IMG/VR virus record: IMGVR_UViG_3300044508_000090
DNA from: a virus
Length of the DNA stretch: 15,658 bases
Reading direction: 5' to 3' (one strand)
Shown here one piece after another: positions 5,886 to 7,016 of this stretch (its first letter is position 1; every line of letters starts with the position of its first letter). The notes beneath the pieces were generated by a model, which was not told the origin of the DNA, searched no databases, and saw only the letters and a list, made by a program, of their open reading frames with translations. Position numbers and translations under genes: made by a program.

Positions 5886-5907
5886 CATTTCTCCATTTAG
5901 CGGGCCA

Positions 5908-5952
5908 GGGTTCTTCGAAAAGGGTTCTTCGAAAAGGGTTCTTCGAAAAGGG
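5908..5952. repeat. Tandem array (3.2 copies, 14-bp period) of GGGTTCTTCGAAAA immediately upstream of the dNMP kinase start
   Basis: Seen directly. The unit contains the palindrome TTCGAA. The same motif family recurs in both orientations at 4351-4385, 5001-5038, 5089-5108, 5131-5155, 5966-5980, 6058-6071 and 6087-6100. Confidence 0.9.
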
Positions 5953-6026
5953 TGTTCCACTGTTCAAAGTCTTCGAAAAGGGGTTGCCCCTAGAAGGCCC
6001 CAAAAGGGGGACCCCATAGGAGAAAA

Positions 6027-6055
6027 ATCCTAAACCGGGGAGTCCCTGAGGTCAA
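6027..6055 (-). promoter_or_regulatory. Candidate sigma70-like promoter for the dNMP kinase gene (TTGACC-N17-TAGGAT on - strand)
   Basis: -35 GGTCAA at 6050-6055 (+ coordinates), 17-nt spacer, -10 ATCCTA at 6027-6032. It would give a ~130-nt 5' UTR containing the TTCGAA tandem array. It is weaker than the consensus promoters elsewhere. Confidence 0.3.
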
Positions 6056-6125
6056 CAGGGTTCTTCGAAAGACCGGGGAGTCCCTAGGGTTCTTCGAATG
6101 CGCGTACCGGGACGTGTATCATTAT

Positions 6126-6285
6126 GTATATCCTAATGTATAGCGAGCGCCTTATTAGTAATAACCTCAGGGTTGTTCCAAAGGGGTGTTCCAAACCGAG
6201 GAAATTATTGACTTTAGGCAAGCTAAAAATCGGGTTCCCTTTTCACTCGTATATCCTAATGTATATCGAGCGCCTTATTAGAATA
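6126..6285. repeat. Two ~37-bp direct repeats GTATATCCTAATGTATAKCGAGCGCCTTATTAGWAATA (6126-6163 and 6249-6285), 123 bp apart
   Basis: Seen directly (2 mismatches). Each unit contains the inverted pair CTAAT...ATTAG. The second copy of the 22-bp TATTGACTTTAGGCAAGCTAAA element lies between them. Confidence 0.9.
6206..6227. promoter_or_regulatory. 22-bp element TATTGACTTTAGGCAAGCTAAA, copy 2 (identical to 4410-4431)
   Basis: Exact 22/22 identity with the copy that abuts the start codon of the 4431 gene. Here it is inside the noncoding hub. Confidence 0.5.
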
Positions 6286-6317
6286 TCTTTCACCGGGAAA
6301 TTACGGCCGCCGCCCCC

Positions 6318-6437
6318 GGGTGGGAGGGGGTGAGATGGGGTCCCCATTTTGGAAGTAGTCCTAGGTTGGCACGGGAAATGATCGTGCCAACCCGGGGGAG
6401 GGGTGGGGGGTCCCCACCCGGGTGGGGGTGGGGTGAG
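6318..6437. other. G-quadruplex-prone G-tract clusters (GGGTGGGAGGGGGTGAGATGGGG 6318-6340; GGGGGAGGGGTGGGGGG 6394-6410; GGGTGGGGGTGGGGTGAG 6420-6437) with GGGG-N-CCCC palindromes
   Basis: Four or more runs of G3-6 separated by 1-6 nt, seen directly. Local GC is far above the window average. The ORF-track ORFs here translate to P/G-rich nonsense. Confidence 0.5.
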
Positions 6438-6680
6438 TACTCCCAGGGGACAGTTGGCACGGGGACGAGTGTCACCACCTGGCACGAGTGGGGAGTATAT
6501 ACCCCAGGGCAAGGGGTGTGCCACCCAGTGGGGACACCTGACCCTATGGGGTGACAGACCCCAGTGGGTGTATAGCAAGAGGTGTGCCAGAATGAGAATC
6601 AAAGAGCGTGCCACGATGGAGGGGCAAGAGGTATGCCAACCTCTTGGTCAAGAACTGTGCCAACAAAAACCGTGCCACCC
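6365..6680. repeat. Iteron-like cluster: ~10 copies of (C/T)GTGCCA(A/C)C in both orientations. It includes the perfect 10-bp inverted pair GGTTGGCACG / CGTGCCAACC (6364-6392) and four copies at ~25-bp spacing (6608, 6633, 6658, 6672)
   Basis: Motif starts at 6365 (rc), 6383, 6463 (rc), 6481 (rc), 6519, 6584, 6608, 6633, 6658 and 6672. This is far above chance for an 8-mer in 300 bp. Confidence 0.8.
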
Positions 6681-7016
6681 GGAGGAGGGGTGGGGGACCT
6701 CCCAGGGTGCGGGCTGACCCCATGTCTCTGGTGCCGCGTCCAATGCCTCTGGTAGGGCCAGGAAGAAGAGAAAGACAAGGGGTATGGGTATCGGGACCTT
6801 AGCCGGCCTGAATGGGCTTTTGGAGGGATTATGCACGGTTCGCGAATCGTGAACGCTGTTCAGAGCGTGTGAACAAACATTCACCATTGGCGGGCCCTAA
6901 ACGTTATGGTAATACAGGGACTTATCAGCCTTTTTTGAGCATTGGTTAGTGTTCTGCAGGAAGCGTGCCAGGTTACGTGAGGGTTTTCTGGCACGCTACT
7001 TGCTATCCTTCAAGGA

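Follow-up and report, generated by a model that had tools for sequence, protein, structure and literature searches.

A divergent array of sigma-54-type promoter elements in a gene-free region of a phage contig

Sigma-54-type elements in a gene-free hub

The stretch of DNA analysed here (IMG/VR record IMGVR_UViG_3300044508_000090, 15,658 nt; hereafter the window) carries a phage gene set that, in Pfam and PHROGs searches, includes an RNA ligase, a phosphoesterase, a deoxynucleoside monophosphate (dNMP) kinase, a NUDIX hydrolase and a polynucleotide-kinase-like ATPase. Between the start of the dNMP kinase gene (5175-5888, minus strand) and the 3' end of a gene for a 97-aa protein (7017-7310, minus strand) lies a repeat-dense hub, 5889-7016, for which a first-pass annotation had proposed a replication origin, a packaging site or a regulatory centre. 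No credible open reading frame (ORF) lies in it, as that annotation had stated: the hub ORFs score -0.06 to -0.22 in codon log-odds and have no Pfam match, the score having been trained on 16 window genes with in-frame values of +0.03 to +0.25. The hub was also said to be the junction of two transcription modules, which does not hold, as both flanking genes lie on the minus strand and the convergent junction is found at about 5175-5194. Further right, a sigma-70 consensus promoter of about 75 nt (TTGACA-17-TATAAT with a GATACAC spacer) recurs seven times on the minus strand and three times on the plus strand between 7948 and 13478, and this part of the window is therefore taken to be an early region with small genes. 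All the repeats listed for the hub are present, far above chance. Among the three proposed functions we favour the regulatory one over origin and packaging, which are less well supported, because the supposed iterons are sigma-54-type elements and because the hub's 14-mer and 22-mer also stand at other gene starts.

The iterons had been described as about ten copies of GTGCCAMC. This octamer is over-represented, with 7 copies in the window against 0.85 expected, but the exact count in the region is 6; its core, GTGCCA, is found 11 times within 6367-6994. Read on the opposite strand, GTGCCAMC becomes GKTGGCAC, and every strong copy has (C/T)TTG(C) five bases on. By consensus and spacing, the repeat is the -24/-12 element of sigma-54 promoters, TGGCAY-N5-TTG(C). 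The window has 11 copies of the pattern TGGCAY-N5-TTG where 0.23 are expected, and all but one of them fall in 6510-7131, while shuffles of 6300-7140 that keep local composition give 0.02 where 10 are observed. No 7-mer of the hub is more over-represented than TGGCACG, which has 9 copies there and 2 in the remaining 14.4 kb, and TGGCACNNNNNTTGC is present exactly at 6523(-), 6589(-), 6989(+), 7118(+) and 15469(+) and with one mismatch at eight more sites. Altogether, about 15 TGGCAC elements are packed into 6364-7132 (about 770 bp), 11 of them with a TTG or CTG half at the fixed spacing.

The elements were also scored with a position weight matrix (PWM) built from 29 intergenic sigma-54 sites mapped in Salmonella by chromatin immunoprecipitation on microarrays (ChIP-chip; PMC3844500). 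At 14 bits or more, the window holds 9 sites against 0.24 in shuffles, and three of these, 6589(-), 6989(+) and 7118(+), with 20.4, 20.7 and 18.3 bits, lie inside the range of the training sites (16-23 bits). As an outside control, we scanned 293 kb of other phage loci that had been fetched for other reasons, and found 5 sites of at least 13 bits, compared with 11 in the 15.7-kb window.

From left to right, the array opens with an inverted pair, GGTTGGCACG / CGTGCCAACC (6364-6392), whose perfect 10-bp arms (6364-6373 and 6383-6392) had been recognised in the first pass; they are face-to-face TGGCACG copies at 6367(+) and 6389(-), scoring 9.7 and 11.0 bits. Two plus-strand TGGCACG half-sites follow at 6455 and 6480 (6455-6485), both without the TTG(C) half. 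Then comes a run of six co-oriented minus-strand TGGCAY-N5-TTG(C/A/T) elements (6509-6677), directed towards the dNMP kinase gene, with 5' ends at 6677, 6662, 6638, 6613, 6589 and 6523, spacings of 15, 24, 25, 24 and 66 nt, and scores, in the same order, of 14.3, 10.1, 10.1, 13.1, 20.4 and 14.0 bits. Overlapping site 6677 is a terminator-like minus-strand hairpin, CCACCC..GGGTGG followed by CACGGTTTTT (6665-6693), which could stop transcription coming from the upstream early genes. To its right, two dyads, CACGGTTCGCGAATCGTG and TGTTCA-N7-TGAACA (6834-6876), lie 113-155 bp upstream of 6989(+); the first-pass annotation had picked out TTCGCGAA here, and it does sit in a palindrome, at 6834-6851. 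Judged only by their distance from 6989(+), these dyads are candidate activator (enhancer) sites, as enhancers are quoted at 80-150 bp (PMC3844500). A back-to-back pair comes next, TGGCACGCTTCCTGC on the minus strand (6970-6956, 14.1 bits) and TGGCACGCTACTTGC on the plus strand (6989-7003, 20.7 bits), and corresponds to the inverted repeat AGCGTGCCAG...CTGGCACGCT of the earlier description (6956-7003, 10-bp stem). Three more elements stand at or in the 97-aa gene (7010-7132), at 7024(-), 7088(+) and 7118(+, TGGCACGGGTATTGC), with 8.5, 9.9 and 18.3 bits; the plus-strand sites 6989, 7088 and 7118 are oriented antisense to the early genes. A second cluster lies far away, inside a gene for a 289-aa protein, at 15274(+), 15318(-), 15459(-) and 15469(+) (16.2, 15.4, 10.8 and 15.8 bits).

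Alternatively, one or more structured noncoding RNAs might be transcribed from either strand of the G-rich stretch. A 789-nt stretch does fold better than shuffles (z = -2.7 on the plus and -5.6 on the minus strand), and other RNA candidates exist in the window, namely two paralogous hairpin RNAs and a weak YrlA-like match described below. However, the excess structure can be traced to 6355-6470 and 6940-7016, where TGGCAC pairs are inverted: the 6956-7003 pair folds with z = -4.2 owing to its inverted sites, and the tandem run (z = +0.25 and +0.86) and 6228-6355 fold no better than shuffles. As only inverted site pairs fold well, the signal appears to be at the level of DNA sites rather than of RNA structure. 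Moreover, no Rfam 15 match was found in 5889-7016 at E up to 1, no tRNA or tmRNA was found there, and no early-type promoter lies ahead of the stretch. We regard an RNA as a remote prospect.

Similar arrays in other phage contigs

A loose two-element scan of IMG/VR returned at least 120 loci, many of which were trivial 12-nt tandem repeats and were discarded. Tandem repeats of 12-nt period that contain TGGCAC are present in many viral contigs (L032, L037, L083, L114, L143 and others) and fit the loose pattern merely because TTG opens the next unit; they must be filtered out of any census of such arrays. A strict pattern (TGGCACG-N4-TTGC, 8-10 nt, TGGCAY-N5-TTGC; 20.5 specified bases) gave 70 loci, where a rough estimate of chance occurrence is below one. 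Taken together, the two scans yielded at least 78 loci in at least 40 sequence-unrelated groups, with GC contents of 0.32-0.64 and 2-14 sites per array. At least 22 groups have four or more sites per 1.2 kb and at least nine have seven or more, the largest arrays reaching 13-14 sites. In contig L167, 14 co-oriented near-perfect sites occupy 500 bp, mostly 24-26 bp apart and with unrelated spacers, and in L161, 13 sites in both orientations extend over about 1 kb. A layout like that of the window, with a leftward block at the left and a rightward block at the right, is seen in L081 (10 sites), and L105 is also divergent; in L163, L164 and L158, face-to-face pairs overlap at the -12 element.

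The positions left free by the search pattern were examined in 77 unique sites from 17 array loci. A C at -12 is found in 67/77, G or A after TGGCAY in 69/77, A or T after TTGC in 55/77 and a pyrimidine before TGG in 59/77. The free positions in these arrays match the sigma-54 consensus. No protein family is common to the array loci, or to them and the window. That unrelated phages with no local protein in common should have one motif suggests a conserved host factor as its reader, and sigma-54 has this consensus.

A large terminase gene lies about 0.3-3.5 kb from the array in 15 of the approximately 27 annotated lineages, and in several of them the sites precede the terS-terL genes and have the same orientation (L046, which stands for a 20-contig group, L066, L047, L126, L155, L194 and L162). 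Such positions, often 0.2-1 kb upstream of terS-terL as are cosB-type sites, together with the location of several arrays at contig ends, would be expected if the repeats were a pac or cos packaging signal read by terminase. Yet one motif would not be expected across unrelated small terminase subunits, and the window has no terminase gene detectable with Pfam or PHROGs, its hub being flanked by the dNMP kinase and early genes. Contig ends are also made by assemblers at tandem repeats: L001, a contig of an independent Logan assembly (SRR35899498) equal to window 8192-5924, stops exactly within the 14-mer tandem array of the hub, which shows that a contig can end at such an array because of the assembly. 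A packaging signal is the least probable of the readings considered here.

Replication genes of the DnaD/DnaB, primase or DNA polymerase types adjoin the arrays of L118, L135, L105, L056 and L185. This argues for an iteron origin, in which TGGCAC would bind a phage initiator, 6100-6300 would unwind and the G-rich stretch may support R-loop priming. Lambda ori, P1 oriR, RK2 oriV and P4 ori/crr are iteron origins, and the hub resembles them in its short direct and inverted repeats at about two-turn spacing, its lower-GC repeat segment and its GC-rich block: four to six direct repeats 24-25 bp apart (6662, 6638, 6613, 6589) are accompanied by inverted copies, by a nearby lower-GC segment with tandem 12-mers and by a G-rich block with GC skew of up to +0.40. 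The second, distant cluster (15274-15483) recalls phage P4, in which ori and crr octamer clusters are paired; a literature search on this system gave nothing usable. The structured DNA described in the first pass is, however, only in part as claimed. The GC content does fall at 6100-6300, but merely to 37-45%, compared with about 51% for the window, so the AT-richness is weak for an origin; GGGG-N-CCCC palindromes are indeed present at 5980, 6007, 6337 and 6407, but the several G-quadruplex (G4) tracts were overstated, a single canonical G4 motif being found in the hub, at 6318-6340. Furthermore, the hub contains no DnaA box, and the window contains no initiator, primase or helicase gene recognised by Pfam or PHROGs. 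The cumulative GC skew, computed on a 15.7-kb fragment, is uninformative: its maximum falls near 8250, outside the hub, and it tracks gene orientation irregularly. Above all, unlike the repeats of known iteron origins, the repeat here is a host-factor motif of unrelated phages, and lineage-specific initiators would not yield a sigma-54 consensus with fixed spacing in at least 40 unrelated groups; arrays beside terminase genes also outnumber those beside replication genes. We consider an origin improbable, if better placed than an RNA or a packaging signal. Initiators and small terminase subunits are both less favoured because each fits a subset of the contexts and neither predicts the common motif, whereas binding of host sigma-54 would explain in a single step a universal motif at different module boundaries of unrelated phages.

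At 30/70 loci, the sites have a co-oriented ORF that begins no more than 400 nt downstream, and the arrays of L167 and L043 face away from the terminase operon. The T7-like contig L158 has its array between terL and small early-like genes, directed towards the latter, at the position of T7-like early promoters. T7 itself has the early promoters A1-A3, which are of the sigma-70 type, lie about 125 bp apart and are activator-independent. The arrays resemble them as co-oriented, putative host-polymerase promoter elements packed at a module boundary, and differ from them in being of sigma-54 type and about 25 bp apart.

Searches of open-access full texts turned up no account of arrays of sigma-54 elements in phages, the nearest item being a predicted sigma-54-like protein of Pectobacterium phage Q19 (PMC7693777). 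Dense arrays of sigma-54 sites may form a widespread, undescribed class of phage noncoding DNA, perhaps a trap or parking platform for host polymerase, of which the hub would be a member; we put this forward as a speculation with a rather low probability. We know of no established role of sigma-54 in phage lytic programmes.

A proposed dNMP kinase control region and a proposed switch

The left third of the hub (5889-6300) has a different content. The tandem array noted in the first pass is real: 3.4 copies of AGGGTTCTTCGAAA (motif M1; period 14, 100% match by Tandem Repeats Finder) lie at 5907-5953, 19 nt upstream of the dNMP kinase ATG (5888-5886, minus strand). Its word GGTTCTTCGAA has 9 copies in the window against 0.34 expected, five of which are in the hub. 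Outside the array, copies occur at 4351/4364 (upstream of the gene starting at 4431), as an inverted pair at 5005(-)/5025, and at 6059 and 6088, and an extra copy is found upstream of the 289-aa gene, just past the window end (1-20 of the overlapping Logan contig L006). TTCGAA has 19 copies where about 3.8 would be expected, 11 of them intergenic and four more in a motif-rich short ORF (4976-5194). Phages and plasmids are known to carry tandem operator arrays, such as the MetJ-type and the ParR/omega-type direct repeats, and the 3.4 GGTTCTTCGAA 14-mers by a start codon, with copies at other gene starts, resemble them in looking like operator sites of a cooperative kind.

Further upstream on the minus strand are two short GC hairpins, GGGGTTGCCCC and GGGGGACCCC (5976-6017), each followed by TTTT, which may be attenuators in a dNMP kinase leader; a copy of AAAAGGGGGACCCC lies at 5148-5161, just beyond the dNMP kinase stop. 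A promoter scan placed a sigma-70-like promoter, TTGACC-17-TAGGAT (9/12 matches), at 6055 to 6027 on the minus strand, a candidate promoter of the dNMP kinase gene, and the surrounding part (6027-6098) holds M1 at 6059-6069 and 6088-6098 and two copies of ACCGGGGAGTCCCT. With a sigma-70-like promoter, TTTT hairpins and tandem 14-mers before the start, the left third can be read as containing the promoter, leader and operators that serve the dNMP kinase gene.

Beyond the candidate promoter lies the lower-GC segment (6113-6285). Its two direct repeats, reported as 123 bp apart, were recovered with that start-to-start distance as 33-nt copies of 97% identity (6126-6158 and 6249-6281), and they lengthen in blastn to 37-38 nt at 94.7% identity (6126-6163 and 6249-6285); they consist of 12-nt GTATAT-type units. 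Between them is a pair of the TGTTCCAA motif (M2; 6169-6195), which recurs at 5950-5959 as well as ahead of the 289-aa gene. The claimed second copy of a 22-nt element was likewise located: TATTGACTTTAGGCAAGCTAAA at 6206-6227 (plus strand) is 100% identical to 4410-4431, 1796 bp away, where it ends in the ATG of gene 4431-4979. Inspection of both strands showed no -10 element at a workable spacing, so that the 22-mer was rejected as a sigma-70 promoter. Since it follows an M1 or M2 pair at both places, these appear to be duplicates of one regulatory module (4352-4431 and 6172-6227). As the same motifs stand at other non-early gene starts, the GGTTCTTCGAA and TGTTCCAA arrays are probably bound by a phage regulator; the GGTTCTTCGAA motif was not found in the other loci examined. 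Farther to the left, a perfect 2 x 21-nt tandem of TGTTGACCGGGGGTGTCCCCG (5189-5230) sits in the overlap between the 3' ends of the convergent genes; the TGTTGACC + GGGG..CCCC word also makes up the -35 region of the promoter-like site at 6055.

These features suggest that the hub is a transcription-control hub in which the promoter, operator and leader of the dNMP kinase gene adjoin a divergent array of enhancer-dependent sigma-54 elements, an interpretation that we prefer and hold at about even chance. Host RNA polymerase with sigma-54 would occupy the elements of 6364-7132 as stable closed complexes, which would fire only with an ATP-dependent activator. The left block (6509-6677) would then direct transcription mostly towards the dNMP kinase, and the right block (6989-7132) mostly antisense into the early genes; such a divergent layout beside early genes with strong sigma-70 promoters would suit an enhancer-dependent switch from early to later expression. 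Sigma-54 transcription is strictly activator-dependent. The sigma-54 (RpoN) promoters glnAp2, pspA and Salmonella rsr-rtcBA have the same TGGCAC-N5-TTGC at the same spacing as the window elements, three of which fall in the ChIP-verified score range, with dyads at the usual enhancer distance from one of them. Unlike these promoters, the window packs about 15 elements into 770 bp at 15-25 bp spacing, in both orientations, partly inside genes and in a phage genome, with no downstream ORF at the usual distance.

Several observations weigh against a control hub. The minus-strand run sits 620-790 nt upstream of the dNMP kinase start, the plus-strand sites have no sense ORF downstream, and both the convergent sites and the intragenic ones (7088, 7118 and 15274-15483) would be odd for productive promoters. 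At 24-25 bp spacing, simultaneous occupancy of all the sites by holoenzyme is impossible. The -12 C is present in just 6/11 window elements, about half, compared with the 67/77 elsewhere. Searches for GAFTGA, Walker A and RpoN box motifs and with Pfam (Sigma54_activat) detected neither an enhancer-binding activator nor rpoN, be it in the window or up to about 7 kb from the arrays, and an activator could be host-encoded. The interpretation also presupposes a host that has sigma-54. The cultured T7-like relatives of L158 (ProddE, RHEph01 and CRP-113) have no arrays. Finally, the hub and its motifs are absent from 23/23 loci that carry the family of a 189-aa neighbour gene, the closest ones (L009 and L017) included. 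The hub is thus not conserved in related genomes, a finding that the first-pass annotation had named as counting against its proposals, but these relatives are too distant for the absence to carry much weight.

Some of these same features would be expected if holoenzyme bound the array mainly for purposes other than initiation, as a sigma-54 trap, a roadblock or a platform of poised polymerase. Host sigma-54 polymerase would then be sequestered on the array, or kept there in silent complexes that insulate neighbouring units. The tight packing, with sites every 24-26 bp and as many as 14 near-perfect ones in an array (L167), the overlapping face-to-face pairs (L163, L164 and L158; in the window, 6367/6389 and 15274/15318), the intragenic sites in both orientations, the arrays of L167 and L043 directed away from the adjacent terminase operon and the lack of a detected activator gene near any array all fit such a role, and closed complexes of sigma-54 holoenzyme are stable without an activator (PMC3844500). 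On the other hand, in many lineages an operon begins shortly after the sites and runs in their direction, as it would behind promoters; capture of holoenzyme would also deplete core polymerase for the phage's own sigma-70 early promoters; and the searchable literature yielded no precedent. We judge this role unlikely, while ranking it ahead of an iteron origin.

A further possibility is that a phage-encoded regulator recognises a site that only looks like a sigma-54 element, all the hub repeats being phage operators. The second half of the window elements, YTTG rather than TTGC, and their irregular -12 C are in line with this, as are the similar motifs TGGAAC / TGTTCCAA and TTCGAAGAACCC alongside and the occurrence of sites in both orientations and within genes, which is typical of operators. 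Against this, the match spans about 9-10 positions at exact spacing, three sites cannot be told apart from verified sigma-54 sites, and the preference for C just before TTG that is seen across the class (44/77 sites in the other arrays) is present in the window too (8/11). A look-alike operator therefore seems doubtful to us. In decreasing order of probability, we place the control hub first, followed by the polymerase trap, the iteron origin, the look-alike regulator, the structured RNA and the packaging signal.

If phages of many lineages do set such arrays ahead of packaging, replication or nucleotide-metabolism modules, this could represent a common, overlooked way of timing phage expression, and would imply new activators from phage or host. 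Alternatively, phages would be manipulating the host pool of sigma-54 polymerase; as a trap, the arrays would draw this polymerase off host stress and defence regulons or hold it poised and silent at module boundaries. For annotation, iteron-like repeat-dense regions of phages should be compared with the -24/-12 consensus before origins are named.

Relatives of the window and further RNA candidates

No DNA similarity of the window to known phages was found. Two contigs from Logan, L001 and L006, match it at 100% identity and add only 141 nt of sequence; searches of IMG/VR for more contigs of this phage by its early-promoter pattern or by the 22-mer found none, and two 1.5-kb metagenome contigs that matched in the search for the same phage proved unrelated. 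Individual proteins were no better a route to close relatives: the best match of the dNMP kinase has 40% identity and is not syntenic, and that of the phosphoesterase has about 50%, with matches in many taxa and without synteny. Relatives of one window protein are carried by metagenome-assembled genomes of several phyla. The 189-aa neighbour gene belongs to a widespread family and is the sole gene common to the window and the 23 loci examined; in the closest relative (L009/L017, 62% identity), the gene beside it is unrelated to the 97-aa gene of the window. A 1.3-kb gap in another locus (L011) was ruled out as an analogous hub, as it is not repeat-dense.

An 848-aa protein (122-2668, plus strand) matches the major vault protein shoulder (E 1e-24) and Vault_3 (E 2e-11), and shares about 40% identity from end to end with unannotated ORFs of the huge phages LR756500 (462 kb) and LR756501 (735 kb). 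As a route to relatives it led only to huge phages of 24-32% GC, without synteny.

The same early-promoter architecture as in the window is found in L009/L017 (60% GC; 62% identity in one protein), in L009 at 9340-9385, 9945-9985 and 10938-10975. Across this promoter family, the spacer word GATAYAC is kept between the -35 and -10 elements, a conservation that suggests a contact or an operator.

Two G-rich segments of about 200 nt, 8105-8315 and 11947-12150 (both plus strand), are paralogous, with 74-nt cores that are 78% identical, and are preceded by plus-strand early-type promoters (8056-8111 and 11898-11953). They have in common a predicted long hairpin of 51 pairs, 4 of which show compensatory changes, and the ORFs called at 8011-8322 and 8057-8503 have noncoding scores. 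These paralogous segments are candidate phage small RNAs.

A weak match to YrlA, a Y RNA-like family, lies at 13269-13365 on the minus strand (28.5 bits, E 0.012, below the gathering score of 69), directly downstream of the early-promoter copy at 13404-13478, and has a tRNA-like arm, GCGGGTTCGAATCCCGC. The window may thus combine, in a phage, an RNA-repair set (RNA ligase, phosphoesterase and polynucleotide-kinase-like protein) with a Y-like RNA.

A second gene-free G-rich gap (14373-14848; GC skew +0.28) is located between two minus-strand genes, and contains three repeats with GATCTAAC and a 27-nt palindromic TGGTGAGGGCAAATTTGCCC(T/G)CACGAT that is also found at 9418-9444.

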